Of a stretch of DNA of 64,000 nt, positions 8,078-50,025 are shown in pieces. A model generated the notes under the pieces. It had not been told where the DNA came from, ran no database searches, and saw only the letters and a program-made list of their open reading frames with translations. Origin of the DNA: Escherichia phage arall; sequence record MN850584.1. One strand, given 5' to 3'. Both the position numbers and the translations under genes were made by a program. Positions within the stretch are counted from its first letter, which is position 1. The number at the start of each line of letters is the position of its first letter.

Positions 8078-8890
8078 TTACTTAGTCAAATGATCTTCTA
8101 TCATTTTTATGAAAGCAGGATTGCTAAAAGCATCTGCTGCCTTTTCTCTGTAAACAAAGACTCCTCTATCTTCGTAAAGAAGAGTTTCTTCGTAATTAAT
8201 TCCTGGGTTAACAACAATCATTTTTGTACCCATATTAAGTGCAGGGAATAATTCCCAATTAAAATTGATAACTTGGTTTGAACATCCTACTACAACAACC
8301 AAATCTTGCATGGTCAAAGTATCAAACAAGTGAGCCATATCTGCATACAAAGGTGCAGCCTCACCAAAAAATACAACATTAGGCTTCACCCAGTTATAAT
8401 CATCTATGTTTATACTATTGTAACCAATATCTACCAGTGTTTTGTAATCTCCAGGATGCATACGGTAAACTACTTCAGGAAGATACCCGTGCACGTGAAT
8501 AACAGAATCCCTGTCCACACCTGCTCGCTCTAGTAGATCATCAACGTTTGTTGTCAAGTTTACTACTTGGTTAGGATATTCCTTAAACCACTTTGCTATT
8601 TGAATATGTGCAGCATTAGGTTGTACATCTTTAAGCTCAACACGTCTTTTGTTATAAAATTCGTGTGTTTTGGCATACAAGTCCATACCGTTCTCGTCTA
8701 CACCACCGACCACTGGAAGATCTGGAGATGTTCTCACACGATAACCTGCTTGGAAAGCTCCAATATCGCAGACCTCTTCTAAGTCATATTCTTCCCATAA
8801 GGCACGACCACTATCTGTGTCTGTTCGGAACGTTCGAATCCCACTGTCTGCACTTAAACCTGCGCCACTAACAAAAATTACTCTTCGCAT
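8078..8890 (-). CDS. Sir2-family (sirtuin-like) NAD-binding protein, no zinc-ribbon
   Basis: 270 aa; GAGLSADSGIRTFR (GAGIS/GIPxFR), TTNVDDLLERAG (TQNID-like), VIHVHG (catalytic His), VVVGCS; no CxxC pairs. Confidence 0.8.
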   Translation of the reverse strand: MRRVIFVSGAGLSADSGIRTFRTDTDSGRALWEEYDLEEVCDIGAFQAGYRVRTSPDLPVVGGVDENGMDLYAKTHEFYNKRRVELKDVQPNAAHIQIAKWFKEYPNQVVNLTTNVDDLLERAGVDRDSVIHVHGYLPEVVYRMHPGDYKTLVDIGYNSINIDDYNWVKPNVVFFGEAAPLYADMAHLFDTLTMQDLVVVVGCSNQVINFNWELFPALNMGTKMIVVNPGINYEETLLYEDRGVFVYREKAADAFSNPAFIKMIEDHLTK

Positions 8891-35723: not shown

Positions 35724-36002
35724 TCAAATAATAACTACAAAATATTTTACACCATCATATTCGACAATATGATCAGGATATTTAAATCCTTTATAAGATT
35801 TACCAAACAGACTAACAGCCTCATTAGCTTTGTTTTGCGGATTACTCAGCCACTGTTCTTCTGTGTAAAACTTAAACTCTGTTCTCTTACCTTCTTTTTC
35901 TAAACCAACAATTTCCTGTGTGATATCTTCAATACCTGCATTCTTCAAGGATTTGATTACCTGACGCAAACCGTGTTTAAAGATATCTTCTGCTGTTAAC
36001 AT
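35724..36002 (-). CDS. hypothetical protein
   Basis: 92 aa ORF. Confidence 0.5.
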   Translation of the reverse strand: MLTAEDIFKHGLRQVIKSLKNAGIEDITQEIVGLEKEGKRTEFKFYTEEQWLSNPQNKANEAVSLFGKSYKGFKYPDHIVEYDGVKYFVVII

Positions 36003-36009
36003 AATACCT

Positions 36010-36034
36010 CCAATAAGCCCCCGAAGGGGCTTTA
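36010..36034. terminator. terminator hairpin
   Basis: AGCCCCCGAAGGGGCT followed by TTATTT. Confidence 0.45.
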
Positions 36035-36038
36035 TTTC

Positions 36039-36761
36039 TTAAGCAATGATTGCTGCGATATTAGGTTTAACAAAGGTAGATGGTTTCATAATTTTACCTT
36101 TGTCATCAAAGAATACGTACACCTTTTGAACTTCGTTATATACAGCATGTACCCCAGTATAAGAACCTTCTGCACGATCTTTGCTTCGCATCTCGATAGC
36201 ATCGCACTCTTTTTCAAGAGCTTCAATAATATCCTTAGTTTCCCAAATAGCCAGGAGTTGCTTCTTGGTAGGATACTTGGACTCATTGCTATTCAACACT
36301 TCACGCATAACCTTCTTCTCGTTATAAACAGAACGCACCAAAGTATCTCGTGCCATACGGGTAAGTGTAAGAGACATTAAGGCAAATTGCAAGTCATTTT
36401 CTACCATTTTATCAAATTCAATGATAACATCGTAAATGTTTTCTGCCAGAACATCTCCTGTCGGCATTTCCAGAGCTTTATCAACACCTTCTTTACCAAA
36501 GAACATAAATGCCAGGTAGGATGCTACCACAAAAATATCTGCTGCTGCATCAAGTAATTCAACGTGATCATTTTCCTGTGCTGCTGCTTGAAACTCTTTA
36601 AGTTCTTCTCGTACAAAAGAAAGTTGAGCTTCAAACATCTCTTGAGTAAATTCTGGAGTTACTCCACCGCGTGCCTTAGCATTCCAAGCAACAATTTGAT
36701 CGGCAGCTTTGATAAAGAAGCTATTGTCCACTTTTACTTGTTTGAAAAAATTCTCGATCAT
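36039..36761 (-). CDS. hypothetical protein (possibly all-alpha NTP pyrophosphohydrolase-like)
   Basis: 240 aa; EELKEF...ELLDAAADIF acidic helices. Confidence 0.4.
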   Translation of the reverse strand: MIENFFKQVKVDNSFFIKAADQIVAWNAKARGGVTPEFTQEMFEAQLSFVREELKEFQAAAQENDHVELLDAAADIFVVASYLAFMFFGKEGVDKALEMPTGDVLAENIYDVIIEFDKMVENDLQFALMSLTLTRMARDTLVRSVYNEKKVMREVLNSNESKYPTKKQLLAIWETKDIIEALEKECDAIEMRSKDRAEGSYTGVHAVYNEVQKVYVFFDDKGKIMKPSTFVKPNIAAIIA

Positions 36762-36770
36762 TGTTTCTCC

Positions 36771-36977
36771 TTATTTAAAATATTGTTCTAACAAAACACT
36801 AATGCGAACTACCGATTCGCCCATATACGCCCCAGCACAGAGGAAAACAACAAATCTACAAAAATTGCAGTACCATTTGTCCACTGGAAACGAGGCTAAC
36901 ATTATAATTGCAATAGCAATTAACATCATAAGAACTGTTACTAATACCATATTACCTCTTACTCTGCTGGTTCCCAA
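36771..36977 (-). CDS. small membrane protein
   Basis: 68 aa; hydrophobic MVLVTVLMMLIAIAIIMLASF. Confidence 0.45.
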   Translation of the reverse strand: MGTSRVRGNMVLVTVLMMLIAIAIIMLASFPVDKWYCNFCRFVVFLCAGAYMGESVVRISVLLEQYFK

Positions 36978-38074
36978 GTACCTGGAATCATCTTACGTAA
37001 ACGGACACCTGTTGGTTTCGTAGGTATTCCACCATCGGAAAACTCTTCATACTCAATCTCAACAAATTTACCAATTAACATTTCAGCATTTTCTGCTTTA
37101 CGATAGTTAATAGTTTCGTCTGAATCCTTACGCATCAGGAATTCGACTACTTTACCATTTTCCATCTCTCCTGTCAATACCCCGTCACCATTTTTATCAC
37201 GCTTTGCACTTACCACTTTAACTTCAAGCGTCTGGCGTGGTTTACGTTTAATAACATCATAAGAACGTTTATCAAATTCGTAAACACCTTTTGCATTACG
37301 ATACACCACACCTTCCGCTTTCTCACGTAGAGCTTTTGCATAGAAAGCATCAAACTGTTCTTGGTTTTCAATGTACTCTGTATGTACTACACAAATAAGT
37401 TCATCTAAACCTTTGTCTTCAACAACTTCTTTTAGAGCAGCCAAAACTTGAACCCTCTTCTCAAATGGTACAGATGCCACAGGAACATCATATACATAGT
37501 ATTTAAGAAGTGGTGTGTTAGCATTATGCTTTTTCCACGCACTATTAATTTGTTGAAGGCTAAGAACACCCAAGCCAGCAAAAACTTCACCGTCAAGAGG
37601 ATGACCAACTACTTCTTTAATAAAGGTTGGAATTTCTTCCCAGTGAGGTGGAAGTTTATATACCTCCCCAGCTTTAGATAAACATTCACCTTGCATGTTA
37701 ATCATTGAACGTAGACCATTCAATTTATATTGTGCATAACCTGGGAACAAAACACGGTCAGCATAATCTTTATAATCCTGACATTTCATGGGTGTGGAAG
37801 GAACATGGTTTTCAGCTTCCTCTTTTGTTTTATAGTACCCATTCTTAAGTTGCTTTGTCCATTTGGCAAGAGCTTCTATTTCAGCTTGTTCTTCTGCTGT
37901 TGTTTCATTTGAGCGACCAATATTTTTAGGTTCTGCCGTATAAGATTTGCTAGTGATCTTTCCACCTAATTGACCATGAGCAACAGTTACAACACTACCT
38001 TCGGTATAGACTGACCACTGTCTAATTTTACCTGTAGAAGTTTTACCATATAATGTAGGATTAGTTTGTTTCAT
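36959..38074 (-). CDS. ATP-dependent polynucleotide ligase (probable DNA ligase)
   Basis: ORF track trimmed to ATG 38074 (RBS GGAGG); motif I KLNGLR, DGEV, EGVVYR, KRKP. Confidence 0.65.
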   Translation of the reverse strand: MKQTNPTLYGKTSTGKIRQWSVYTEGSVVTVAHGQLGGKITSKSYTAEPKNIGRSNETTAEEQAEIEALAKWTKQLKNGYYKTKEEAENHVPSTPMKCQDYKDYADRVLFPGYAQYKLNGLRSMINMQGECLSKAGEVYKLPPHWEEIPTFIKEVVGHPLDGEVFAGLGVLSLQQINSAWKKHNANTPLLKYYVYDVPVASVPFEKRVQVLAALKEVVEDKGLDELICVVHTEYIENQEQFDAFYAKALREKAEGVVYRNAKGVYEFDKRSYDVIKRKPRQTLEVKVVSAKRDKNGDGVLTGEMENGKVVEFLMRKDSDETINYRKAENAEMLIGKFVEIEYEEFSDGGIPTKPTGVRLRKMIPGTWEPAE

Positions 38075-38264
38075 CTTTAACCTCCAGTTGCGAAAGAACC
38101 CATTTAGCCATTTCAATTTCACCGTGTAGTCTGCCTAGTTCATAGGCATCATCAATATTACCACCAGTGTAATCATCCACCATAAAGTAAGGATCTTCAC
38201 TACTGTTAGGCGCGTTTGCAATTCTCGTTAGTTCTTCAATAAATGTCATAGTTAACCTTACCAA
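38061..38264 (-). CDS. hypothetical protein
   Basis: 67 aa ORF. Confidence 0.45.
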   Translation of the reverse strand: MVRLTMTFIEELTRIANAPNSSEDPYFMVDDYTGGNIDDAYELGRLHGEIEMAKWVLSQLEVKDETN

Positions 38265-38482
38265 TTATACACAAGAGTTTGAATTTGTTCCATCAAATCT
38301 TCAAGATCTGTATCAACATATTCAGAAGATGTTGCCATAAAGTATGTAATCATTGTGAACCCTTCCGAAGAAAGGGCATCAAGGATATCATTAAACATAT
38401 CTTCCATTTCAGTATTCTCACCAAATGAGAATAACATTTGTTGATCTTCGCTTACACCTTTAACATAGATAGCTGTACTCAT
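38258..38482 (-). CDS. hypothetical acidic protein
   Basis: 74 aa ORF. Confidence 0.45.
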   Translation of the reverse strand: MSTAIYVKGVSEDQQMLFSFGENTEMEDMFNDILDALSSEGFTMITYFMATSSEYVDTDLEDLMEQIQTLVYNW

Positions 38483-38485
38483 ATA

Positions 38486-38806
38486 TTAATCCTTAAGACG
38501 TTCATTTAAATCTGCAATAACATCACCTAAATCTTCACATTCCAGCGTTAACTCTGAAACTTGTCCACTCAAATAAGAAACTTCTTCGTTTAGATCTGAA
38601 ATAATGTTTTCTAATGAATCTACTTGGTCATCATATGCACGTTTTGTTTCTTCAAGTTCTTCCGTAAGATCATTAATCAAACGGAGCAAAGATAAGATAT
38701 AGCCGTCTCCTGTCTCGTTCCTCCACTCACTTCCATAGCGATAAATAATAATTTTACCATCATCGACTACTGTAAAATACTTACCTTTACCAGAATAAAT
38801 TTCCAT
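38486..38806 (-). CDS. coiled-coil protein
   Basis: 106 aa; heptad-like acidic helix. Confidence 0.5.
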   Translation of the reverse strand: MEIYSGKGKYFTVVDDGKIIIYRYGSEWRNETGDGYILSLLRLINDLTEELEETKRAYDDQVDSLENIISDLNEEVSYLSGQVSELTLECEDLGDVIADLNERLKD

Positions 38807-38815
38807 AAATTCTCC

Positions 38816-39220
38816 TTATTGTAGCTTAAGTGAACTGCGAAGACGTTTCTCTTGCTGATCACGAATATGTTGTGGAACCTCATGAATTGAGTCGTTACCG
38901 TGCCTATTTTCAACAACTAAAGAGATAACTTGATAACCAAACTCTTCAGCAAGAGTTAAATAAGGTTTAAGTTCTTTCTCTGTGGTTGAAGTGTTAGAGA
39001 CAATAATCTTTTTAATATTAGATGCCATAGCATCACGAACAATACTCTGACACCATGCGTGGGCTTTACCTACATTTTCTGGCTTCCAATCGTAAACACC
39101 CCTTTCTGTGTAATGGTATTGATCTGCCTCACAGATAGGCCAATAACCTTCAGAAATAATTTCTGCTACTGTAGATTTACCTGCACCTGAAACACCACGT
39201 AAAATGATAAGTTGTTTCAT
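38816..39220 (-). CDS. polynucleotide 5'-kinase (T4 Pnk kinase-domain-like)
   Basis: 134 aa; ILRGVSGAGKST P-loop, IIVSNTSTT, EFGYQV parallel T4 Pnk ILTIGCPGSGKST/VIISDTN/EYGWKV. Confidence 0.7.
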   Translation of the reverse strand: MKQLIILRGVSGAGKSTVAEIISEGYWPICEADQYHYTERGVYDWKPENVGKAHAWCQSIVRDAMASNIKKIIVSNTSTTEKELKPYLTLAEEFGYQVISLVVENRHGNDSIHEVPQHIRDQQEKRLRSSLKLQ

Positions 39221-40153
39221 TTAGCCTCCAAAGAAGTTTTCTATTTCTTTACGTCGCTCTTGTGGAGCTAGAGCAGCCCATTGAACCTTCGTAAAATTAT
39301 TTCGAAGCCATTCTATCAAAGTATAATATTCTTCGTCAACAATTTGTTTAGCATTATTTGGGTTGTCCCAAATCATATCCCACTTCTTATTACCACCACG
39401 CATAAGGAACTTCTTAGCAAGATAGTATGGTGACTTAATTTTTAAGAGTAAGTTAAACGGGTAGTTTGTTTCACGAACAACAAAGCCTTCGTGTCTACAA
39501 TGTTTAGACATTTCAACAACATCTGAAAATTTAATCATCGGATAAACTTCAGGACGTTTAAATTTTGTAATAGATGCAATCCCATCAAGAACACCTTCAG
39601 GTAACATGAAACTTGTCCCATCAAGATTTTGAATTCTTGCTCCAATTAAGTATGCGCCTGGTTCTTCTTCGACAATATGTGGATCAGAAGGATCACAGAT
39701 TTCAAAAAGGAAAGTTGCTTTTGCACTTTCTGTCCACTTAATGAAATACTCTATGTCATCACACTCGGAAACAATACGGTTCTTGGCAATAGTTGCAAAG
39801 TCTGACTCTAGGCTCCCTGTTGTTGATACAACAAGTTTCCCTTTGTACACACCTACAGATGCCATAAAACCGTTTACTTTACGGACAGCATCTACAAATT
39901 CATCTCCTGGAAGATCTGTACCATTCTCAAAACGATTAAAGATTTTAGTAAAAGGCCAAATAACAATATTATCTTCTGAGTCAACAACCAACCCACGACA
40001 ATCTAAAAGTCGTTTGTCAACGTTCCACAAGTTATCCCAGAATACATTGTTTTTGTATTTAAGTACAGCAAGACCAGCATACTCTCCAGATTTAACTTCT
40101 TTTTTATGCACTAAACCTTTTGCAATCAGGTCATCACAATTGAACTTAGCCAC
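39221..40153 (-). CDS. RNA ligase-like nucleotidyltransferase
   Basis: 310 aa; motif I RKVNGF (KxNG), HEGFVVRE, LLKIKSP. Confidence 0.6.
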   Translation of the reverse strand: MAKFNCDDLIAKGLVHKKEVKSGEYAGLAVLKYKNNVFWDNLWNVDKRLLDCRGLVVDSEDNIVIWPFTKIFNRFENGTDLPGDEFVDAVRKVNGFMASVGVYKGKLVVSTTGSLESDFATIAKNRIVSECDDIEYFIKWTESAKATFLFEICDPSDPHIVEEEPGAYLIGARIQNLDGTSFMLPEGVLDGIASITKFKRPEVYPMIKFSDVVEMSKHCRHEGFVVRETNYPFNLLLKIKSPYYLAKKFLMRGGNKKWDMIWDNPNNAKQIVDEEYYTLIEWLRNNFTKVQWAALAPQERRKEIENFFGG

Positions 40154-40154
40154 C

Positions 40155-40706
40155 TTAATCTCCTTTGATTATCTTATGATGGTCTACAACAATAATATCA
40201 CGCTTATCCATAATAGAGATGATTTCGTCAAAATGCAAGATTTTCCCGTGTGCATCCCAACCAACATCCAACATTTTCCCATACAAATGATCAGGGAATG
40301 ATCCGTGAGAGTGTCCGTGTAGCATGATTGATCCATGCCCTTGTTTATTCCAGGCAGCCATAGGGTAATGACTTAAGACGAAGAACAATTTCTGATATTT
40401 CACTTCGTCATAATACACAACTTCTCCATACTCTGCAAGCACTTTTCTGTGTTTACTGTAATCATGGTTCCCAACACAGTAAGTAATATCCCCTTGGAGA
40501 CGGGAAGCAATCTTACGGGTATCTTCTTCAGTCCCGAAACAGAAGTCCCCAAGATGGTACATCTTTACTCCTGGTGTTGTGGCACATTTATTCCATGCTT
40601 CGATCAGTGCTTCTGTCATATGCTCCATATCTTCCCACGGGCGATATTCAGGAGCAAACTCTCGGATACGTTTGTGCATAAAATGCAAATCACTTGTAAT
40701 AAACAT
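40155..40706 (-). CDS. calcineurin-like metallophosphoesterase
   Basis: 183 aa; SDLHFMH, GDFCFG, GNHDY, GHSHG. Confidence 0.8.
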   Translation of the reverse strand: MFITSDLHFMHKRIREFAPEYRPWEDMEHMTEALIEAWNKCATTPGVKMYHLGDFCFGTEEDTRKIASRLQGDITYCVGNHDYSKHRKVLAEYGEVVYYDEVKYQKLFFVLSHYPMAAWNKQGHGSIMLHGHSHGSFPDHLYGKMLDVGWDAHGKILHFDEIISIMDKRDIIVVDHHKIIKGD

Positions 40707-41065
40707 TAGTATAATCCCTCGCTGAATAGTTCACTGTTGTGACCATTTCTTTCGTAGTTAATTTGTTTGGCGTTATCTGCAATGACATAAGCATCTTTGC
40801 GACTCCACCAGTTATAATACTGATCAATAAACCCTTGATTATCAGGTAAGCAAAACAGTTTATCGATCAATCCTGCATCTTTTAAAACATTAAGTTGTGC
40901 AGATAGTACAGGATTTGCATGCCTAACACAAGGAATAATTAACTCTTCACCATTGTTAAGAATATACTTGTTCGCAGCGCAGACTATAACACGTTGAGCA
41001 TAGTGATCCTCACCAATCCAAGTGAGAGGTTGGTAACAAATATCATGTTGATTAGTAGCGCACAT
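40706..41065 (-). CDS. hypothetical protein
   Basis: ORF track start (TTG 41068) moved to adjacent ATG. Confidence 0.5.
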   Translation of the reverse strand: MCATNQHDICYQPLTWIGEDHYAQRVIVCAANKYILNNGEELIIPCVRHANPVLSAQLNVLKDAGLIDKLFCLPDNQGFIDQYYNWWSRKDAYVIADNAKQINYERNGHNSELFSEGLY

Positions 41066-41214
41066 CAATTTTCTCCATACTCTTTTAGTCTATCAGCTAA
41101 AAAACTGTAATCAGGAAGTAAAAGATCATTACTCGTATCGCTCCAATTTTCTTCCTCTCTATAGATAAAATGCCCTTCATCCTCTTCTTGCTCTGACCAG
41201 ACTGAGTAATGCAT
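41065..41214 (-). CDS. small acidic protein (49 aa)
   Basis: ATGA overlap with downstream gene; below track cut-off. Confidence 0.3.
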   Translation of the reverse strand: MHYSVWSEQEEDEGHFIYREEENWSDTSNDLLLPDYSFLADRLKEYGEN

Positions 41215-41223
41215 AACACCTAC

Positions 41224-41598
41224 TTAATAGTTAACACGTTTAATTTCAACACCATAGGATGCAATAAAATTTTCCTTAGCTAACATATATTTACCAGCAG
41301 CAGAAGGATTTGATGTATGAACATAGATAGTTTTAAGAGCATCCCATTCACCTGCGTACAACATACATTCTACGTCTAAGAACGCATGATATCCTTCTTG
41401 ATCTTCTCCAAGATCATTATCGAAGTGTATCTCTGAAATATTATTGAAATTATCTTCATCTGAAACAAAAGATGACCAATCCCCAAAAGATTTTAACCAA
41501 ATGGCATCCTCATAACCATAATCTTTAGGATCTCTTAAATCGTCTAACCAAAGAATTTTAGCCACTATCAACCCCCTTCCTGTTTCTCTTCTTTCCAA
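41224..41598 (-). CDS. hypothetical protein
   Basis: 124 aa ORF. Confidence 0.55.
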   Translation of the reverse strand: MERRETGRGLIVAKILWLDDLRDPKDYGYEDAIWLKSFGDWSSFVSDEDNFNNISEIHFDNDLGEDQEGYHAFLDVECMLYAGEWDALKTIYVHTSNPSAAGKYMLAKENFIASYGVEIKRVNY

Positions 41599-41759
41599 GT
41601 TTTACCTTTATCTACCAATTGCTTAGAAACAGCAAATCTTTCTCCATTGACATAAAACAGATAAAGAATAAAGGATTTTCCTATAGTTACAGTATCTACT
41701 ACTTCTGCACGCTTTACACCTTGCATGTATTTGGCTTTACCTGAATAAATAAGGAACAT
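41568..41759 (-). CDS. hypothetical protein
   Basis: 63 aa ORF. Confidence 0.4.
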   Translation of the reverse strand: MFLIYSGKAKYMQGVKRAEVVDTVTIGKSFILYLFYVNGERFAVSKQLVDKGKTWKEEKQEGG

Positions 41760-42037
41760 TATTTATTCCTTTTGTTGTTGATCACATCTAAAGCTGTGTA
41801 AGGTTTGTTTGTACCACTGTATTCAAGAATAATTGGTGCATGTTCATAGACAAACTCAAAAGTACCATACACAGAATCTGCAACTGAAATAAGCATTTCA
41901 GTGCCTTCATCGTTCTTAATTAATGAAAACCTTGCCCCTGGTTTATTGAGCACTTCATATTTCTTACCTACTGTCAGCAAACCTGAATACCATTCATTTT
42001 GCACAACAGACAAACACTTCAGGTAGGTTTTTCTCAT
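41759..42037 (-). CDS. hypothetical protein
   Basis: 92 aa ORF. Confidence 0.5.
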   Translation of the reverse strand: MRKTYLKCLSVVQNEWYSGLLTVGKKYEVLNKPGARFSLIKNDEGTEMLISVADSVYGTFEFVYEHAPIILEYSGTNKPYTALDVINNKRNK

Positions 42038-42375
42038 TTCTTTTTGCTCCTTCTTTTAGGCTTCTCATATAAACCTAACACAGCCGACTCTTTTGCACAA
42101 ATAGGAACTGATTTCATTCCTCGTTTTTTAGCTTCTGGTAGATTCAAAACCCACCAGCCAAACCAATACAATTCATCTTCTGTGAAAGGATCTGCCATAG
42201 GATCTGCTTCACGTTCTTCAAATTTAGCAAGAGCTTCTTCTATCTTTTCTATTGGAGTATCAAAGACAAAAGCCTCTGTGTCAAATTTTTGTTTCTTAGG
42301 AGCGGCCTTTGCCGCCCCATCTTTAGATGCGTGCTTTGTTACGGATCGCTTCTTCGGTGTTTTCGCCATCAACAA
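42034..42375 (-). CDS. lysine-rich basic protein (possible DNA-binding)
   Basis: 113 aa; KKRSVTKHASKDGAAKAAPKKQK and KPKRRSKKK tails. Confidence 0.5.
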   Translation of the reverse strand: MLMAKTPKKRSVTKHASKDGAAKAAPKKQKFDTEAFVFDTPIEKIEEALAKFEEREADPMADPFTEDELYWFGWWVLNLPEAKKRGMKSVPICAKESAVLGLYEKPKRRSKKK

Positions 42376-42562
42376 CCTCCATACGGTGTAAGAAATCTTG
42401 CTGGAATCGCCAATACTGTTGACCAGTCCTTACATCTTCGTAGATCACAACAGGATCAAATACTTTAGATACACCCGCTGGTTTAGGAAAGCCAACTACA
42501 CGATATAAACCACCTTTGCTAATACAAGAATATGTTACATCAGTTAAAATTTCTTTTTTCAT
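42323..42562 (-). CDS. hypothetical protein
   Basis: 79 aa ORF; 3' end overlaps next gene. Confidence 0.4.
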   Translation of the reverse strand: MKKEILTDVTYSCISKGGLYRVVGFPKPAGVSKVFDPVVIYEDVRTGQQYWRFQQDFLHRMEVVDGENTEEAIRNKARI

Positions 42563-42756
42563 TTTTTAATAAACTCCAAAACAGGTACGTGATCAGCAGT
42601 CAAAGTTACACAATTGTAACTTACCTTTTCAACTTCAGAGAATGCTTCAACCCAAAGTAAGAAATTCTCTTTAGCTTCTTCATAATTCAATGTTGACTTA
42701 ACAACATGGAACTCACCAAGAATTACTCTATAGATTGTTTGCATAGTTTGATTCAT
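42559..42756 (-). CDS. hypothetical protein
   Basis: 65 aa ORF. Confidence 0.45.
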   Translation of the reverse strand: MNQTMQTIYRVILGEFHVVKSTLNYEEAKENFLLWVEAFSEVEKVSYNCVTLTADHVPVLEFIKK

Positions 42757-42822
42757 TTATTTTTCCTTTGTTTAGAATGTGTTAAACAATCGCAAATGCT
42801 TGTGACGCACTTTGTGATCCCA

Positions 42823-43191
42823 CTAATTAACGTCAGCACTATGATTGTTGAGAGTATAGGATACTCCATCGCCCAAGTCAACATGAATCTCAACTCCTAA
42901 CTGTCTTTCTAATGGTAAACGTTTTGAGAATTGATAATTACAAAGTTTGCAATCTAAGTCAAGCAACTCATGTTTGCTTAAGCCTGGAATGATAACTTTG
43001 CTTCCCACTGTCCACTCAATACCTTCAAAGTTATCTCTTCTTTTCAAAATGTCAAGTAAGAAGATGATTTGTTGCCATTCCGTAGACAAGTCTTCTTCAT
43101 AGAACGCAGAACAAAAAGTTTTATCATCGTAGAAAGCATACATTATGCTTCCATCTATTGTTTCACTTCTAACGTAGCGTGTGACCCTCAT
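42823..43191 (-). CDS. hypothetical protein (first gene of - block)
   Basis: 122 aa; RBS AGGAGGG upstream. Confidence 0.55.
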   Translation of the reverse strand: MRVTRYVRSETIDGSIMYAFYDDKTFCSAFYEEDLSTEWQQIIFLLDILKRRDNFEGIEWTVGSKVIIPGLSKHELLDLDCKLCNYQFSKRLPLERQLGVEIHVDLGDGVSYTLNNHSADVN

Positions 43192-43532
43192 TATTCCCTC
43201 CTATACGGCTCTGTAACGAGCTAATGGCCTTTAAGATATGCAATCACCTTACCTCACAGTAAAACTCGTTACAATCGTTTTTAGGAGGTTTAGGTTGTAC
43301 TTAAAAATAATCTAAAAAGGTGTTGACAAACGCAAAAAAGTATGCTACCCTAACCCCCGAAAAACGCCGAGCGCAGCGAGGGGGTGTTATCTAATCTTGT
43401 GATACATGATCTAACAGACAACTGAGTAGTCTACATATAGCACTATGTTATGTCTATAATACTAACATACATGCTCTATACTAACAATAGATTCTTTATT
43501 AATTTTATTATTAATTAAATAATAAATATCTA

Positions 43533-43561
43533 TTGACTTTAGATCTATCTGTATGTAGAGT
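43533..43561 (+). promoter_or_regulatory. sigma70-like promoter (TTGACT-N17-TAGAGT)
   Basis: -35/-10 hexamers with 17-nt spacer downstream of AT-rich UP-like region. Confidence 0.45.
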
Positions 43562-43600
43562 AGAAAACATAAAGTCCGAACTCAACTAAGGAGATAAACA

Positions 43601-44494
43601 ATGAAAGTTAGTATTCTACATGGTGTTGACTGTTATGTTACTGATGTAGACGTTAAAGTCTTTACATTCTCTGGTGGAGAACAACATGTTCAACTAGATA
43701 CGAATCTATCAGGTTTCAATCATGCTACAGACAGAATCTTACTCTCTTTAGAAGTAAGATCTGCTAAAGACTTGATGACTTTGGTTATGACTAAGAATGC
43801 ATTGGACAATATGCTATATCATAAACCATATTGTGTTGATTTGCTCATGTTGTATGTGCCATATGCACGACAAGACAGAGTGTGTGAACCTGGGGAAGCA
43901 TTCGGAGTTAAAGCATTTGCTTCTATAATTAATTCATTAAATTTCTCACGTGTTATCGTTGCTGATCCACATAGTGATGTTACTCCAGCGGTGTTTGACA
44001 GACTCTGTGTAATACCTCAAGAAGAGATTGCTTACGAAACTTTAAAGTGGAAGTTACGTATGGAGAATTTTGCTCTTGTTAGTCCTGATGGTGGTGCTCT
44101 TAAGAAAATATTTAAATTATCTAAGAAAATGTCTTTAGATGTGTTCTGTGCAGAGAAGGTTAGAGATACTGCAACAGGTGCTATTGTTCGTACAGACATT
44201 TCTGTACAGGATTTCAATAAGCGTAACCTGATGATCGTAGATGATATCTGTGACGGCGGTAGAACTTTTATTGAATTGGCTAAAGTGCTACGTGCTCGTA
44301 ACGCAGGTAAGATTGAGTTATATGTTACACACGGTATCTTTTCTAAAGGTCTTAAAGAGTTAAGTGAGCACTTTGACTGCATTCATTCTCTTAATGTGTG
44401 GGAAGATAACATCCAAGAAGATTCCGGTGTTCTTGTTAAGAATCAGTCAGATTTGCAACAACAAATTGTATCTCCATACGTGTGGAATTTTTAA
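43601..44494 (+). CDS. PRPP-synthetase-like phosphoribosyl pyrophosphokinase (candidate ADP-ribose pyrophosphokinase, Adps-like)
   Basis: 297 aa; VPYARQDR, VSPDGGALKK, IVDDICDGGRT motifs; RBS AAGGAGA. Confidence 0.8.
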   Translation: MKVSILHGVDCYVTDVDVKVFTFSGGEQHVQLDTNLSGFNHATDRILLSLEVRSAKDLMTLVMTKNALDNMLYHKPYCVDLLMLYVPYARQDRVCEPGEAFGVKAFASIINSLNFSRVIVADPHSDVTPAVFDRLCVIPQEEIAYETLKWKLRMENFALVSPDGGALKKIFKLSKKMSLDVFCAEKVRDTATGAIVRTDISVQDFNKRNLMIVDDICDGGRTFIELAKVLRARNAGKIELYVTHGIFSKGLKELSEHFDCIHSLNVWEDNIQEDSGVLVKNQSDLQQQIVSPYVWNF

Positions 44495-44565: not shown

Positions 44566-46299
44566 ATGAATATTTTTGCACCTTTTGCTACTGATTGGTA
44601 TAAACCTGGTCACAAGCAGATGTACAACCAAAATACAAAACTCATTTTCTCTAATTTAACTCCTCGTAATGATAAAAACTTTGCACACTATGCAGATCGT
44701 GAAGCACGTGGTGTAATTGTTTTAGGTATTCGTCGAGCAGTTACTGATGCTCTTGTAACTATGTGGGATAGCTTCTTTAAAATGTCTCGTAGTGCAGCAG
44801 TAAATAAGTTTTATCGTATGTCTAAAAATGCATTAGGTGCTTCTTCTCCTTCTGCTGAATGTTGGGGAGAATTGCACGATTTAGGTTATCTTCCGCTGGA
44901 AGTTCGATCTCTGCCAGAAGGTGTTTTGTGTCCTATTGGTGTTCCTGTGTTTACTGTGCATAATACTTTAGAAAAATTCTTTTGGTTAACTAACTATGTG
45001 GAAACACTATTGTCAGATGAAACTTGGAAGACAATGACTAATGCTACAGCAGCTTTTCAGTATAAGCGTATTGCTATGGCATATGCGATGGCAACGTGTG
45101 ATAATATTGATCACGTTAACTTCCAGTGTCATGATTTTAGCCTACGTGGTTTAAGTAATATTGAAGATGGTTATAAGAGTGGTATCGCTCATTTGGCATC
45201 GTTCACAGGCACAGATAATATTCTGGCTATTGAAACTGTGCATGATTATTATGGTATTGATTATGATCAGTTTGTTGCAGGTTCTATTCCGGCAACAGAA
45301 CATTCAGTAGCAACGACTAACATTGGAGCTATTGTTGAAGATCTGAAGAAACATTTCCCACATCTTAAAGATGATGTTGATGGGCTTCGTTATGTAGCAG
45401 AGAAAGAGTTTCTTCGCCGCTATATTGAAGAAATTGTTCCAGAAGGTTTTTGTTCATATGTAGCAGATTCTTATGATTACTGGGCTGTCTTGACTCGCAT
45501 TCTGGTAGAATTGAAAGAGTCCATTATGTCACGAAATGGTCGTCTTGTTATTCGTCCAGATTCAGGAGATCCGGTTAAAGTTGTTGCAGGATACAATGTT
45601 GAATCTTTTGCTAACTATGAAGACCTTTTAAATAATGGTATTGCTACAGCCACTGAAGTAGTTCATTTGGCTGATGTTAATAAGTATTACAATGTTCTTC
45701 AGGATTGCAGTGTTGCTGATTGTATTGATGAAACTTATGAGATTCCTTATTGTGAAGCAGTAGGTTCTATTCAAATCCTTTGGGAAGTGTTTGGTGGTAC
45801 TATCAACCGAAAAGGCTACAAGGTTCTTGATCAGCACATCGGTATGATTTATGGTGATTCTATTACTGTTGAACGAGAACACGAGATCTTACGCCGACTG
45901 AAGAAGAAAGGTTTTGCAGCTTCCAATATTGTATTTGGTGTTGGTAGTTATACTTATCAGTTCAATACACGAGATACTTTTGGTTTTGCTGTTAAAGCAA
46001 CAGGTAGTATCATCGGTGAACACGAAATTTTGGTAAGTAAGGAGCCTAAAACTGATCCTGGTAAACGCTCTGCAAAAGGTTTTATTAAGGTTGTTAAGGA
46101 TACAAATGGTAAACTTTCTCTTGTGGATAATCTTTCTTTTAAAGATATTCAAGATGAAGACAATGAGTTAAAAGTTATCTTCAGGGATGGTACGGTTATT
46201 ACACCACAAGTAGAAGGACGTGATGAAACATTTACTGATATCCGCAACCGTGTTGATGTAGAGGTTCTTCGTACTATGGGAACCATCCAGGTTGACTAA
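44566..46299 (+). CDS. nicotinamide phosphoribosyltransferase-like (NadV/NAMPT family; candidate Namat)
   Basis: 577 aa; N-terminal FATDWYKPGHKQMY and overall NAMPT-like organisation; RBS AAGGAGA. Confidence 0.8.
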   Translation: MNIFAPFATDWYKPGHKQMYNQNTKLIFSNLTPRNDKNFAHYADREARGVIVLGIRRAVTDALVTMWDSFFKMSRSAAVNKFYRMSKNALGASSPSAECWGELHDLGYLPLEVRSLPEGVLCPIGVPVFTVHNTLEKFFWLTNYVETLLSDETWKTMTNATAAFQYKRIAMAYAMATCDNIDHVNFQCHDFSLRGLSNIEDGYKSGIAHLASFTGTDNILAIETVHDYYGIDYDQFVAGSIPATEHSVATTNIGAIVEDLKKHFPHLKDDVDGLRYVAEKEFLRRYIEEIVPEGFCSYVADSYDYWAVLTRILVELKESIMSRNGRLVIRPDSGDPVKVVAGYNVESFANYEDLLNNGIATATEVVHLADVNKYYNVLQDCSVADCIDETYEIPYCEAVGSIQILWEVFGGTINRKGYKVLDQHIGMIYGDSITVEREHEILRRLKKKGFAASNIVFGVGSYTYQFNTRDTFGFAVKATGSIIGEHEILVSKEPKTDPGKRSAKGFIKVVKDTNGKLSLVDNLSFKDIQDEDNELKVIFRDGTVITPQVEGRDETFTDIRNRVDVEVLRTMGTIQVD

Positions 46300-47045: not shown

Positions 47046-47121
47046 GGTTCCATAGCTCACTGACGAGAGCGCACACCTCATAAGTGTCGAGGGCAGGGAT
47101 TGTAACCCTGGGGAACCACCA
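47046..47121 (+). tRNA. tRNA-Met/Ile2 (anticodon CAT), non-canonical T-loop ATTGTAA
   Basis: hand-folded cloverleaf: acceptor GGTTCCA/GGGAACC (one A.G), D-arm GCTC-ACTGACGA-GAGC, anticodon loop CTCATAA, T-stem CAGGG/CCCTG, CCA encoded. Confidence 0.55.
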
Positions 47122-47152
47122 TTTAAAAGGAGGTGCTATGCATCTCCTATAT

Positions 47153-47238
47153 GCAAGTGTGGTGGAATTGGTGATACACATTGTGCTTAAAACGCAACGC
47201 TTAAATGCTTGAGGGTTCGAATCCCTCCACTTGCACCA
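47153..47238 (+). tRNA. tRNA-Leu (anticodon TAA)
   Basis: acceptor GCAAGTG/CACTTGC, anticodon loop CTTAAAA, long variable arm, T-loop TTCGAAT, CCA encoded. Confidence 0.75.
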
Positions 47239-47240
47239 AC

Positions 47241-47346
47241 GCCTAGTAGGGTATTTGGTAATTCCGAGGCCATCAAAGCCTGAAAAATATGTTAGACCGC
47301 TTTGTCTAACTAAATACGAAATATGGTTCGATTCCATAACTAGGCT
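47241..47346 (+). other. atypical over-long tRNA-like gene (106 nt)
   Basis: perfect 7-bp acceptor GCCTAGT/ACTAGGC and canonical T-arm TATGG-TTCGATT-CCATA, but about 30 nt too much between them, including a 7-bp hairpin GTTAGAC-CGCTTT-GTCTAAC. Confidence 0.35.
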
Positions 47347-47379
47347 TCAATTTAAATAGTAATTTTAGTAAAAAATATC

Positions 47380-47408
47380 TTGACATTTACTTAGTTTTTT
47401 GTTATAGT
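47380..47408 (+). promoter_or_regulatory. sigma70 consensus promoter (TTGACA-N17-TATAGT)
   Basis: near-consensus hexamers ending 12 nt upstream of tRNA-like gene at 47420. Confidence 0.55.
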
Positions 47409-47419
47409 CGTTATGAAAA

Positions 47420-47501
47420 CGGGGTGTATCTCACCTGACTTCTAATCAGGCGTTAACCGAGTAATTGGAGTATGCAGGTTCGAATCCTGTCACCCCGGCC
47501 A
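47420..47501 (+). other. atypical tRNA-like gene with anticodon hairpin TCT (Arg-type) and no recognisable D-arm
   Basis: perfect acceptor CGGGGTG/CACCCCG + CCA, T-arm GCAGG-TTCGAAT-CCTGT, anticodon arm CCTGA-CTTCTAA-TCAGG; only 7 nt (TATCTCA) where D-arm should be; 23-nt variable region with GNRA-capped stem. Confidence 0.4.
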
Positions 47502-47519
47502 AAAAGTTTTAAAAACTAC

Positions 47520-47549
47520 TTGACAAGCAAGATAGTTTTATGTTAGATT
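47520..47549 (+). promoter_or_regulatory. sigma70-like promoter (TTGACA-N17/18-TTAGAT)
   Basis: hexamers upstream of tRNA-Ser. Confidence 0.4.
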
Positions 47550-47564
47550 TAAAGTATGATAACT

Positions 47565-47654
47565 GGAAGGTAGGGCGCAGCGGTGCGCAACCAGGTTTGA
47601 ACCCTGGCCCATTGTAGCGATACGGTGATGGTTCGACTCCATTATCTTCCTCCA
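47565..47654 (+). tRNA. tRNA-Ser (anticodon TGA)
   Basis: acceptor GGAAGGT/ATCTTCC, anticodon arm CCAGG-TTTGAAC-CCTGG, long variable arm, T-loop TTCGACT, CCA. Confidence 0.7.
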
Positions 47655-47660
47655 AATTCA

Positions 47661-47825
47661 ATGAGTGATTTTATGAATTATAAAACTATTGGACAGGTTG
47701 TTACCGGAGTTAAGATTGTAAATAATAAAGTTGTTTATGAGTATTCTAATCTTCAACAATCTGAAGATGGTAAGAATATTCGTATGGTAAAAGCAGAACA
47801 AAAAGATTCCGGTTGTTTTGAATAA
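47661..47825 (+). CDS. small hypothetical protein inside tRNA cluster
   Basis: ORF track 47625..47825 trimmed to first ATG after tRNA-Ser 3' end; no clear RBS. Confidence 0.3.
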   Translation: MSDFMNYKTIGQVVTGVKIVNNKVVYEYSNLQQSEDGKNIRMVKAEQKDSGCFE

Positions 47826-47833
47826 TTAAGAAC

Positions 47834-47919
47834 GGTAGATTGGTGAAATGGTAGCCACAACAGTTTGCTAAACTGTCGTCGGAAACGGCGTGTAGGTTCA
47901 AGTCCTACATCTACCGCCA
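47834..47919 (+). tRNA. tRNA-Ser (anticodon GCT)
   Basis: acceptor GGTAGAT/ATCTACC, anticodon loop TTGCTAA, long variable arm, T-loop TTCAAGT, CCA. Confidence 0.7.
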
Positions 47920-48054
47920 AGTTATCTTTAATGTAGCTTGTAATCTTACTTTAGCAGAGTAAATCTTCGGCAAGTGGCGGTAACCACTTTACCGATACCC
48001 CAATACTTCATAGCTAAGTGCCGCAAACACTGGCTATTTTAAAGATAATTTTAT

Positions 48055-48129
48055 ACATCGTTAGCCAAGCGGTAAGGCACTTGACTTTTAATCAAGGGAG
48101 CGAAGGTTCGAATCCTTCACGATGTACCA
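48055..48129 (+). tRNA. tRNA-Lys (anticodon TTT)
   Basis: acceptor ACATCGT/ACGATGT, D-arm GCC-AAGCGGTAA-GGC, anticodon loop CTTTTAA, T-loop TTCGAAT, CCA. Confidence 0.75.
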
Positions 48130-48134
48130 AACAC

Positions 48135-48221
48135 GTAGGTATCGCATAGCGGCAATTGCTGGAGACTGTAAATCTCCTGCCCTTCTGGGCTTCGTTGGTT
48201 CGAGTCCAACTACCTGCACCA
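48135..48221 (+). tRNA. tRNA-Tyr (anticodon GTA)
   Basis: acceptor GTAGGTA/TACCTGC (U2.G71), anticodon arm GGAGA-CTGTAAA-TCTCC, long variable arm, T-loop TTCGAGT, CCA. Confidence 0.7.
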
Positions 48222-48228
48222 AATTAAA

Positions 48229-48313
48229 GATGGATTGGCCTAGTGGTTGGGCGACGGACTGTTAATCCGTGAACGAAAGTTCTAGCAAGGTTCAAATCCT
48301 TGATCCATCGCCA
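48229..48313 (+). tRNA. class-II (long variable arm) tRNA with anticodon GTT (Asn codons) in a Ser/Tyr-like body
   Basis: acceptor GATGGAT/ATCCATC, 3-bp D-stem GCC/GGC, anticodon arm ACGGA-CTGTTAA-TCCGT, 15-nt variable arm GAACGAAAGTTCTAG, T-loop TTCAAAT, CCA. Confidence 0.5.
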
Positions 48314-48320
48314 GAATTAT

Positions 48321-48397
48321 GGACTTGTAGAGTTAAGGTAAAACCCCAGTCGCCAAGAGGCTTCTGGAATTGCAGGTATCGAATCCTGTCGAGTCCA
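48321..48397 (+). pseudogene. degenerate tRNA-like element (possible tRNA pseudogene)
   Basis: acceptor-like GGACTTG/CGAGTCC and T-arm-like GCAGG-TATCGAAT-CCTGT (8-nt loop); no D-arm or anticodon arm found. Confidence 0.3.
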
Positions 48398-48403
48398 AGT
48401 ATT

Positions 48404-48478
48404 GCTCCTATCGTATAACGGCTATTACGGTTGCCTTGTAAGCAACTTATCAGGGTTCGAGTCCTTGTGGGAGCACCA
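48404..48478 (+). tRNA. tRNA-Thr (anticodon TGT)
   Basis: acceptor GCTCCTA/TGGGAGC, anticodon arm GTTGC-CTTGTAA-GCAAC, T-loop TTCGAGT, CCA. Confidence 0.75.
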
Positions 48479-48495
48479 ATTTTAACTCTAAAGGA

Positions 48496-48825
48496 GTGTA
48501 TGTGACAGAAAAAGAGTTAGAGAAATATTTTAATATCAATGTTTTCGATGGTTTTGATGATATTGAAGATGTTGAAAGATATTATGAAGTAGAGTTAGAT
48601 AAGGATAACATTGTAATTCTTTCTGCCACTTATGATTGTGCATATTATGAAGGTGAATCTCACGTTTATTTTTATGATATGAAAACATCTTTGTTTTATG
48701 AAGTACACGCATATCATTGTTCTTGTTATGGTTTAGAAGGTCAGTGGGAACCTGAAGAAATAGGTGATTTGGATTTTACTATTGCATATCTAAACAGACG
48801 TGGTGCATCTACTATTTTAAAATAA
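48496..48825 (+). CDS. hypothetical acidic protein inside tRNA cluster
   Basis: 109 aa; GTG start at RBS AAGGAG (alternative GTG 48502). Confidence 0.5.
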   Translation: MYVTEKELEKYFNINVFDGFDDIEDVERYYEVELDKDNIVILSATYDCAYYEGESHVYFYDMKTSLFYEVHAYHCSCYGLEGQWEPEEIGDLDFTIAYLNRRGASTILK

Positions 48826-48839
48826 ATATCAAAAGCCTC

Positions 48840-48869
48840 TTGACAAAGTGGCTAATAATATGTTAGAGT
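48840..48869 (+). promoter_or_regulatory. sigma70-like promoter (TTGACA-N18-TAGAGT)
   Basis: hexamers upstream of tRNA-Gly. Confidence 0.4.
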
Positions 48870-48880
48870 AATATTGTTAA

Positions 48881-48955
48881 GCGGGTATAGTGTTAATTGT
48901 AGCATATGAGGTTTCCACCCTCCAGGTGCAGGTTCAAGTCCTGTTACTCGCTCCA
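48881..48955 (+). tRNA. tRNA-Gly (anticodon TCC)
   Basis: acceptor GCGGGTA/TACTCGC, anticodon loop TTTCCAC, T-loop TTCAAGT, CCA. Confidence 0.65.
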
Positions 48956-49302
48956 AGATTATTTAAATGGAATCGCTAGAGAAAATTTCTCTTTTCGCTC
49001 ATGGTTTTCTCCTTCAAACTCTAGCGGTTCTTTTTAAGTGATTTTTAGTTTATTGGAGATTCACTGCCTTAGTATGAGCTAAAATCGAGGAGCCATCGAA
49101 CTGTCTGATTAATGATTTGCGAATCATTATAGTTTTAAGACCCCGGCAGTTTTATGGTGTACCTCTTGAATGTGAATGATGACGGGTTTATGGTTATCCT
49201 GGTCGTTAAATATCCAAAAACCTATGTTCCCCTTGATGGCTTGCGCAGGCAATGCCAATAAGTCCTGCATTTTCATTTAAAAGAGAATTTATAATGGAAA
49301 AA

Positions 49303-49380
49303 GATGAACTTAAGTATGCTAAGCCTCTGGCTTCTGCTGCACGAAAAGCAGTTCGTCACTTTGTGGTAACACTGAAGTAA
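49303..49380 (+). CDS. very small ORF (25 aa) in structured noncoding stretch
   Basis: ATG 9 nt after AAGAGAA; MEKDELKYAKPLASAARKAVRHFVVTLK; speculative. Confidence 0.2.
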   Translation, partial: DELKYAKPLASAARKAVRHFVVTLK

Positions 49381-49385
49381 TTTAT

Positions 49386-49460: not shown

Positions 49461-49467
49461 AGATTTA

Positions 49468-49543: not shown

Positions 49544-49548
49544 AATTT

Positions 49549-49785: not shown

Positions 49786-49800
49786 AATTATTACAGATTG

Positions 49801-50020: not shown

Positions 50021-50025
50021 ATTAT

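Follow-up and report, generated by a model that had tools for sequence, protein, structure and literature searches.

Does Escherichia phage arall carry its own means of mending cut RNA? Abortive-infection systems that cleave tRNA (PrrC, RloC, HEPN and retron effectors, Cas13, PARIS, and OLD) are a major arm of bacterial immunity, and to our knowledge the Pnkp and Rnl1 proteins of phage T4 are the only phage repair answer that is understood experimentally. The question is raised by three adjacent genes, for a kinase, a ligase, and a phosphoesterase, at positions 38816 to 40706 of a 64,000-nucleotide stretch of the arall genome (sequence record MN850584.1), which is referred to below as the window. 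An earlier reading of the letters and open reading frames (ORFs) of this stretch, here called the sequence-only reading, had proposed that the trio supplies RNA end-healing and sealing activities. Our computational follow-up indicates that the trio is probably a phage RNA repair cassette in which healing and sealing are divided among separate polypeptides. The domain assignments, the linkage of the genes across viruses, and natural gene fusions all speak for that proposal, while the share of the phosphoesterase in it is drawn from gene context only.

Three abutting genes for a kinase, a ligase, and a phosphoesterase

The window belongs to a Justusliebigvirus (Stephanstirmvirinae), a phi92-like Escherichia phage, and its region from 36000 to 42500 is 97 to 98% identical over the full length to sequenced Justusliebigvirus phages such as cardinal, ESCO32, Paula, and alia. 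The three genes are orthologues of phi92 gp095, gp096, and gp097 and are assigned as follows.

38816..39220, minus strand: predicted mini polynucleotide 5'-kinase, 134 amino acids, orthologue of phi92 gp095 (Pfam, PHROG, profile, and fold)
39221..40153, minus strand: predicted Rnl1-family ATP-dependent RNA ligase, 310 amino acids, orthologue of phi92 gp096 (PF09511, profile, and fold)
40155..40706, minus strand: predicted binuclear metallophosphoesterase, 183 amino acids, orthologue of phi92 gp097 (phrog_547 and invariant metal ligands)

The three consecutive minus-strand genes described by the sequence-only reading are thus present as ORFs at exactly these positions, and all of the motifs that it quoted for the kinase, the ligase, and the phosphoesterase occur in the translations. 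Domain searches with hidden Markov models (HMMs) from Pfam and PHROG agree with all three assignments, and their matches are far beyond chance. In the records of related phages, the kinase is variously labelled as an ATPase, a polynucleotide kinase, or a nucleoside-nucleotide kinase, the ligase as a putative RNA ligase or RNA repair protein, and the phosphoesterase as a putative phosphoesterase. The genes are packed tightly, as in an operon: at TAATG, the phosphoesterase gene has a start codon that overlaps the stop codon of the ORF upstream of it; at TAAGGTG, the GTG start of the ligase gene comes after the stop of the phosphoesterase gene; and at TAAATG, the stop of the ligase gene and the start of the kinase gene are directly joined.

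The P-loop of the kinase, GVSGAGKST, occupies residues 9 to 17 (Walker A, G9 to T17). Pfam places the protein in the generic AAA_33 family (5e-10) and detects no further domain in the 134 residues, NCBIfam returns only P-loop noise, and the PHROG matches are to the large family phrog_2071, named 'ATPase' (6.6e-58), and to phrog_505, named 'polynucleotide kinase' (5.5e-9). When a profile made from 24 homologues (alignment A1) was searched against all PDB sequences, all of the top matches were polynucleotide kinases that act in RNA repair or splicing. Pnkp1 from the Pnkp1-Rnl-Hen1 complex was the best match (4xrp; 2.4e-6) and a Rhizopus Trl1-type kinase the second, followed by T4 Pnk (1ly1 and 1ltq; 5e-5), the Pnk domain of Clostridium thermocellum Pnkp (CthPnk; 4gp7; 1.5e-4), and then the tRNA kinase PSTK. 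Matches to deoxynucleoside monophosphate (dNMP) kinase and nicotinamide riboside kinase were weak and confined to the P-loop. The AlphaFold model of the kinase (predicted local distance difference test [pLDDT] score, 87.5) has T4 Pnk (1ly1; template modelling [TM] score, 0.73) and CthPnk (TM score, 0.75 to 0.78) as its top Foldseek matches, and in a viral structure library most of its matches bear the names polynucleotide kinase, PseT, or tRNA ligase/kinase. D33, which is invariant in the 24 homologues, aligns with the general base of the T4 enzyme (D35; D38 in C. thermocellum) after strand 2 and is the putative general base of the phage kinase. R106, in the sequence E-N-R-H-G, is also invariant and lies in the loop before a conserved V-P, where it may correspond to T4 R126, the lid arginine in contact with the phosphates of the nucleoside triphosphate; the loop lengths differ, and the register is uncertain. 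Profile and fold therefore support the placement of this protein in the polynucleotide 5'-kinase clade of T4 Pnk, CthPnk, and Pnkp1, as the T4 Pnk-like kinase of the sequence-only reading, and activity on 5'-OH ends is predicted.

The ligase contains the motif K92-V-N94-G95, in which K92 is the predicted adenylylation site. It matches Pfam family PF09511 (RNA_lig_T4_1) over profile positions 2 to 227, that is, in full (53.3 bits against a cut-off of 28.3; E value, 4.5e-14), and also matches phrog_562 (1.1e-66), a family named 'RNA ligase and tail fiber protein attachment catalyst'; NCBIfam gave no useful match. A single-sequence search against PDB sequences found nothing, and with a profile made from 25 sequences (alignment A3) T4 Rnl1 surfaced as the only solved sequence relative (4.2e-10), over the nucleotidyltransferase domain. 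The Foldseek ranking of the model (pLDDT, 90.3) is led by T4 Rnl1 (5tt6 and 2c5u; E value, 1.2e-12; TM score, 0.62); fungal Trl1 ligase domains score 3e-12, archaeal Rnl3 about 1e-9, and Rnl2, Rnl5, and DNA ligases 1e-6 or worse. Nucleotidyltransferase motifs I (KxxG), III (E), IV (EG), and V (KxK, K238-I-K240) are all kept. Invariant in the 25 homologues are R53, K70, K92, N94, G95, E151, E222, G223, K238, and K240, and F72 is nearly so. Residues K92/G95, E151, E222/G223, and K238/K240 align with T4 K99/G102, E159, E227/G228, and K240/K242, and the conserved R53, K70, and F72, upstream of motif I, align with T4 R54, K75, and F77. Nine of the 10 mapped T4 Rnl1 residues are retained in the phage protein. 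The KxNG nucleotidyltransferase resembling RNA ligases can thus be specified, on the basis of PF09511, the T4 Rnl1 profile match, and the fold, as a member of the Rnl1 family; these lines of evidence support an ATP-dependent RNA ligase for which sealing activity is predicted.

The third protein shows the calcineurin-type motifs D6-L-H8-F, G53-D54-F, G79-N80-H81-D82, and G131-H132-S-H134, and in 29 homologues (alignment A2) residues D6, H8, D54, N80, H81, H113, H132, and H134 are invariant, which makes up the full set of metal ligands. The protein belongs to a large PHROG family (phrog_547; 8.5e-55), and the description of it as a calcineurin-like phosphoesterase holds. Its match to PF12850 (Metallophos_2) is below the cut-off (20.6 bits against 27), many of its homologues carry precomputed matches to PF12850 or PF00149, and NCBIfam gave no useful match. 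The A2 profile has only one close solved relative, Aquifex aeolicus aq_1665 (1xm7; 3.7e-22), a structural-genomics entry with a metallophosphoesterase fold; weaker solved relatives are the small-molecule phosphodiesterases GpdQ, YfcE, Rv0805, and Icc. Motif II reads GDFCFG and lacks the D-R of GDxxDRG. A search for functional literature on aq_1665/COG4186 found nothing relevant. From its gene context, the protein is a candidate end-healing enzyme for 2',3'-cyclic-phosphate or 3'-phosphate ends.

Linkage of the trio across viruses and the proposed pathway

Scanning IMG/VR with the ligase profile yielded 70 distinct loci, in which ligase identity ranges from 100% down to 30%, and the ORFs of these loci were searched with the HMMs from alignments A1 to A3. 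Sixty-seven of the 70 loci contain the phosphoesterase, 65 contain the kinase, and 63 contain the full trio; several of the incomplete loci are cut by contig ends. Thirty-three loci have the order phosphoesterase-ligase-kinase and 28 the order kinase-ligase-phosphoesterase; the genes share a strand, and their median span is 2.45 kb. At least 606 sequenced phages carry the cassette, including phage-therapy candidates, and their hosts include Escherichia, Klebsiella, Pseudomonas, Vibrio, and Acinetobacter. In one rV5/phAPEC8-like contig (L005), the phosphoesterase and ligase genes are separated by an HNH endonuclease gene (7369 to 8010, plus strand; phrog_953; 7.6e-74), together with which an ORF of unassigned function (7074 to 7430) is inserted; the HNH gene looks like a homing-endonuclease insertion into the cassette.

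Loci were also collected with each of the other two genes as the seed. Among 80 loci seeded with the kinase, both partners were nearby in 22, only the phosphoesterase in 23, only the ligase in 5, and neither in 30. The commonest neighbours of the kinase in loci that have no Rnl1-type ligase are a PF09414 RNA ligase (with a PHA02142 OB domain), Metallophos, HAD_PNKP, HD, NADAR, and NUDIX proteins; HAD_PNKP occurs beside related kinases in a few other phages. Thirty-seven of the 80 loci seeded with the phosphoesterase have the ligase and/or the kinase nearby.

The kinase is also found fused to other domains. Its profile retrieved 13,007 clusters (50% identity) from 1.84 billion representative proteins, and the best 150 relatives include kinase-Rnl1 fusions in both orders (P0417, P0461, and the truncated P0385), five fusions of the kinase to an HD phosphoesterase, a 783-residue protein with two kinase domains and a CNPase domain, and N4BP2-like eukaryotic proteins. 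No fusion of the kinase or ligase to a protein matching the phosphoesterase profile was present among these 150. Also within the best 150 of this phage-built profile are two giant proteins (2,322 to 2,373 amino acids) with three to four tandem mini-Pnk-like domains; P0469, the sole giant scanned with Pfam, also has CUE, DUF1771, and Smr domains and is N4BP2-like. The relatives with tandem or double kinase domains are P0469, P0483, and P0459.

The linkage in 63 of 70 loci, kept through two gene orders, and the natural kinase-ligase and kinase-phosphoesterase fusions lead us to expect that the three proteins act together. In the order of steps that we infer, cleavage by a metal-independent ribonuclease would leave a 2',3'-cyclic phosphate on one RNA end and a 5'-OH on the other. 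The metallophosphoesterase, perhaps with the help of the cREC protein described below, would open and remove the cyclic phosphate or the 3'-phosphate to give a 3'-OH, the 134-residue Pnk-type kinase would move a nucleoside triphosphate phosphate onto the 5'-OH, and the Rnl1-type ligase, adenylylated on K92, would join the 3'-OH to the 5'-phosphate. By analogy with T4 Pnkp/Rnl1 and with bacterial Pnkp, the likeliest substrates would be the anticodon loops of tRNAs, encoded by the host or by the phage and cut by abortive-infection nucleases. If tRNA loops are the substrate, the cassette would be a counter-defence that complements the 15 tRNA genes of the phage itself.

Several observations weigh against this interpretation or narrow it. 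At the position of the arginine that contacts the acceptor in T4 Pnk (R38) and CthPnk (R41), the kinase has a nearly invariant histidine, H36. The ligase has T112 at the position of T4 K119, where the lysine is not conserved; we take R54, K75, F77, and K119 to be essential residues of T4 Rnl1, on the strength of the mutational literature. The C-terminal domain of T4 Rnl1 confers tRNA specificity. The helical C-terminal domain of the phage ligase (residues 242 to 307, about 65 amino acids) is about half the size of that of T4 Rnl1 (about 120 amino acids), and the profile alignment gave no sequence match past T4 residue 249. The phosphoesterase belongs by sequence to the uncharacterized aq_1665-like clade, not to the clade of C. 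thermocellum Pnkp and lambda phosphatase, neither of which was found by its profile even at an E value of ≤10. Moreover, 43 of the 80 phosphoesterase-seeded loci lack both partners and have heterogeneous contexts, and the family is therefore broader than RNA repair and the role of the phosphoesterase the least secure link in the pathway. DNA ends are possible substrates too, because the neighbourhood is rich in genes of DNA metabolism. A literature search found no experimental studies of these cassette proteins or of the RNA-repair genes of phi92 or rV5; the main text of the HIDEN-SEQ preprint on an rV5-like phage has nothing specific to these genes.

Taken together, the family, fold, residue, linkage, and fusion evidence nevertheless gives good computational support to an RNA healing-and-sealing pathway. 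A broader suggestion, which we put forward tentatively, is that the aq_1665-like phosphoesterase and the mini-Pnk form an uncharacterized and very widespread RNA end-healing pair that in phages works with interchangeable ligases, of the Rnl1 type or the PF09414 type, and that in the phi92/rV5 group, in company with cREC, a sirtuin, and salvage of nicotinamide adenine dinucleotide (NAD+), would counter several tRNA-cleaving defences and not only PrrC. If true, a physiological substrate would for the first time be known for the orphan aq_1665 phosphoesterases.

Neighbouring genes and alternative explanations

The trio lies within a leftward gene block and is accompanied, on both sides and farther away, by the following features.

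8078..8890, minus strand: Sir2-family protein (NCBIfam deacylase, 1e-30; phrog_2162, 1.3e-105)
36039..36761, minus strand: MazG-like nucleotide pyrophosphohydrolase (PF01503, 3.2e-7; phrog_671)
36959..38074, minus strand: ATP-dependent DNA ligase (PF01068, 2.9e-11; phrog_114, 2.5e-75)
40706..41068, minus strand: 120-amino-acid protein, orthologue of phi92 gp098 (phrog_839; no Pfam or NCBIfam match)
41224..41598, minus strand: cREC (cyclic-phosphate processing receiver-like) protein, orthologue of phi92 gp100 (PF20274, 3.9e-13)
43601..44494, plus strand: phosphoribosyl pyrophosphate (PRPP) synthase, NAD+ salvage, diverging from the module (library matches)
44566..46299, plus strand: nicotinamide phosphoribosyltransferase (NAMPT), NAD+ salvage, diverging from the module (library matches)
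47046 to 50101, plus strand: 15 tRNA genes (two each for Met, Leu, and Ser and one each for Lys, Tyr, Asn, Thr, Gly, Gln, Pro, Phe, and Ile)

This cluster supplies the phage with replacement tRNAs, and the trio supplies it with putative enzymes for tRNA repair. The cREC gene is located two genes upstream of the phosphoesterase gene, whereas in rV5-like loci it lies between the ligase and kinase genes; the function predicted for cREC is that of a cyclic phosphodiesterase (Iyer et al., PMC7824862 and PMC9503650). The gp098-like protein, encoded between the cREC and phosphoesterase genes and translationally coupled to the latter, is possibly an accessory component of the module. Its PHROG family is without a known function, and it has no similarity to the ORF at the same position in L005; a homologue adjoins the ligase gene in a distant locus (L057, 7178 to 7456). 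NCBIfam gave no useful match for the cREC protein.

Gene order in the rV5/phAPEC8-like phages is phosphoesterase, (HNH insert), ligase, cREC, kinase, SIR2, DNA ligase, and then MazG, with the sirtuin gene directly after the kinase gene. We looked for a sirtuin gene at this site in the window and found none: its orthologue is displaced to 8078 to 8890, in the same leftward gene block as the trio but at its far end, some 30 kb away. The two proteins are 55% identical over 268 amino acids (tblastn; L005, 9724 to 10500), and the L005 ORF matches Pfam SIR2 (3.4e-22). The SIR2 slot, between the kinase and DNA ligase genes, is filled in the window by three small minus-strand ORFs (38061 to 38806) of 67, 74, and 106 amino acids (phrog_24346, phrog_16431, and phrog_18076), and the 106-residue product is largely coiled coil. 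A Pfam search at an E value of ≤1 of 10 small neighbouring ORFs (gp092 to gp106A) returned only coiled coil or noise, and no methyltransferase, Hen1 included, was detected among the Pfam-scanned ORFs from 36039 to 43191.

Beyond the DNA ligase gene lies the MazG-like gene, which is present in 13 of the 70 ligase-seeded loci and recurs in the phi92/rV5 group. Its product matches the PRA-PH/MazG core only at residues 38 to 93 of 240, with no Pfam match for the rest, which points to a MazG variant that is enlarged or fused. The trio is probably not the whole module, to which the cREC, MazG-like, and Sir2 genes may also belong. Scanning positions 35900 to 43700 for promoters and terminators gave results no better than those of shuffled controls and no operon boundaries, except for a G+C-rich hairpin at 36007 to 36032. 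This hairpin, between a gp088-like ORF and the MazG-like gene, is terminator-like on both strands, is the only clear site of this kind near the module, and is annotated as a terminator in phage Paula.

These neighbours lend themselves to other explanations of the trio. A yeast-like, NAD+-dependent repair, the mechanism proposed in PMC9503650, appears unlikely to us. Here, cREC and/or the phosphoesterase would open the 2',3'-cyclic phosphate to a 2'-phosphate and a 3'-OH, the kinase would phosphorylate the 5' end, the Rnl1/Trl1-like ligase would seal the break, and the sirtuin would strip the 2'-phosphate from the junction as Tpt1/KptA does, with NAD+ supplied through PRPP synthase and NAMPT. 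The ligase model fits such a route in matching fungal Trl1 as well as T4 Rnl1 (3e-12 and 1.2e-12, respectively), as do the cREC gene two genes upstream and the position of the sirtuin gene directly after the kinase gene in rV5/phAPEC8-like loci, with its orthologue in the window. In 29 of the 70 loci, from several lineages, a PRPP synthase gene lies no more than 8 kb from the gene for the Rnl1-like ligase, and in contigs of about 90 to 100 kb it directly follows the kinase gene. However, the sirtuin gene of this phage is remote from the trio, and SIR2 and cREC occur in only 11 and 10 of the 70 loci, respectively, so that in most lineages the core trio works without them. A 2'-phosphotransferase would also be superfluous if the metallophosphoesterase took the phosphate off completely, as it could, and RNA 2'-phosphotransferase activity is not known from any sirtuin.

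The DNA ligase gene raises a different alternative. The sequence-only reading had counted this gene as a second KxNG ligase 1 kb away; the gene is real, and its PF01068 and phrog_114 matches make its product a DNA ligase and not an RNA ligase, probably one of replication or repair that stands outside RNA repair. The kinase and the phosphoesterase could then heal 5'-OH and 3'-phosphate nicks in DNA for this ATP-dependent ligase during replication or recombination, leaving the Rnl1-like protein with another role. The DNA ligase gene is indeed only 0.7 kb downstream of the kinase gene and is near the trio in 26 of the 70 loci, the other genes around the trio include those for an RdgC-like protein, a 5'-exonuclease, and a DNA polymerase exonuclease subunit, and T4 Pnkp is established to act on DNA as well as on RNA. 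We nevertheless regard DNA end processing as improbable, since the ties of the kinase are far closer with RNA ligases than with DNA ligases: it accompanies the Rnl1-type ligase in 65 of the 70 ligase-seeded loci, it is fused to Rnl1 domains, and a PF09414 ligase is its commonest neighbour elsewhere. Furthermore, the trio is translationally packed, and the three small ORFs set it apart from the DNA ligase gene.

The three genes could, finally, have unrelated functions within an early-gene or anti-defence island, with a phosphoesterase that degrades nucleotide second messengers, a kinase that takes part in the salvage of nucleotides or NAD+ (for instance, as a nicotinamide riboside kinase), and a ligase homologue that helps to attach tail fibres in the manner of gp63. 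Although the weak solved relatives of the phosphoesterase act on small molecules, its family often lacks the partner genes, the P-loop-only matches of the kinase are to small-molecule kinases, NAD+ salvage genes lie next door, and the PHROG name of the ligase family includes tail-fibre attachment, this is improbable, since chance would neither keep the trio together in 63 of 70 loci, in two orders and down to 30% identity, nor yield kinase-ligase fusions, the full-length profile and fold matches of the kinase are polynucleotide kinases, and a purely structural role would not need the invariant catalytic residues of the ligase.

Outside the module, four consecutive genes for dTDP-rhamnose synthesis are present at about 20287 to 23548 on the minus strand, as judged by synteny with phage alia; they encode a glucose-1-phosphate thymidylyltransferase, a 4,6-dehydratase, a 3,5-epimerase, and a reductase, an unusual phage cargo.

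Comparison with known systems

The cassette itself is not new: its genes already carry annotations in GenBank, and its neighbourhood has been predicted in print. Iyer et al. (2021; PMC7824862, section 3.4.9), who also defined the cREC domain, described phage ATP-grasp RNA ligases that are associated with polynucleotide kinases and phosphoesterases, the latter being calcineurin-like 'in a small number' of cases. Iyer, Burroughs, Anantharaman, and Aravind (2022; PMC9503650, section 3.7.3) then described the cREC, sirtuin, and MazG neighbourhood of rV5-like phages and predicted that it functions in RNA-end clean-up and ligation. What is added here is a count of how often the genes are linked, in two permuted arrangements, the fusions of the kinase to ligase and to phosphoesterase domains, the displaced sirtuin gene of phi92-like phages, the assignment of the phosphoesterase to the orphan aq_1665 clade and not to that of C. 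thermocellum Pnkp and lambda phosphatase, and the replacements of an arginine by histidine in the kinase and of a lysine by threonine in the ligase. The cassette would represent a different, split solution to RNA repair, and its function would bear on which defences these phages withstand. The remaining value of the finding lies in experimental follow-up, which would assign a substrate to the orphan phosphoesterase clade.

One of the closest known systems is the predicted sirtuin-centred RNA-repair neighbourhood of rV5 and Proteus phage Mydo (PMC9503650), and the Mydo ligase is 57% identical to that of the window. Of the components listed there (sirtuin, T4-like ligase, cREC, kinase, and MazG), the window has all but the sirtuin within 36039 to 41598, and the phosphoesterase as well. 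The two arrangements differ in the place of the cREC gene, between the ligase and kinase genes in the rV5/Mydo type and upstream of the phosphoesterase gene here. The phosphoesterase was called 'occasional' in that study, whereas we find it beside the Rnl1-like ligase in 67 of 70 loci.

T4 Pnkp (PseT) and Rnl1 (gp63), which counter PrrC, share with the arall proteins a phage-encoded kinase of the Pnk clade (TM score, about 0.73) and a ligase of the Rnl1 family, in which the nucleotidyltransferase motifs and the equivalents of the N-terminal T4 residues R54, K75, and F77 are kept. The chemistry needed is the same, conversion of a 2',3'-cyclic phosphate end and a 5'-OH end to 3'-OH and 5'-phosphate ends followed by sealing. 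In T4, however, the 3'-phosphatase is a HAD (DxDxT) domain fused to the kinase, whereas in arall a separate calcineurin-type metallophosphoesterase takes its place. The sequence-only reading was right on this difference, the kinase being a stand-alone protein of 134 residues with no further domain. The phage module also differs from the T4 system in being accompanied by cREC, MazG-like, sirtuin, and NAD+ salvage genes.

Fungal and plant Trl1, together with Tpt1, resembles the cassette in having an Rnl1-clade ligase domain (3e-12), a Pnk-clade kinase, and the same logic of healing and sealing. Trl1 is, however, a single polypeptide with a 2H cyclic phosphodiesterase and a GTP-dependent kinase, whereas the predicted phage activities are carried by separate proteins, and its ligase requires a 2'-phosphate that is later removed by Tpt1.

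The closest architectural precedent for a kinase, a metallophosphoesterase, and a ligase acting as a set is bacterial Pnkp of the Pnkp-Hen1 systems (C. thermocellum Pnkp and Capnocytophaga Pnkp1-Rnl-Hen1), in which the same three enzyme superfamilies carry out the same three steps. C. thermocellum Pnkp combines them in one polypeptide with an Rnl4-type ligase, whereas the arall cassette has three ORFs and an Rnl1-type ligase. Its phosphatase is lambda-phosphatase-like, whereas the phage phosphoesterase is aq_1665-like and has no detectable specific similarity to it.

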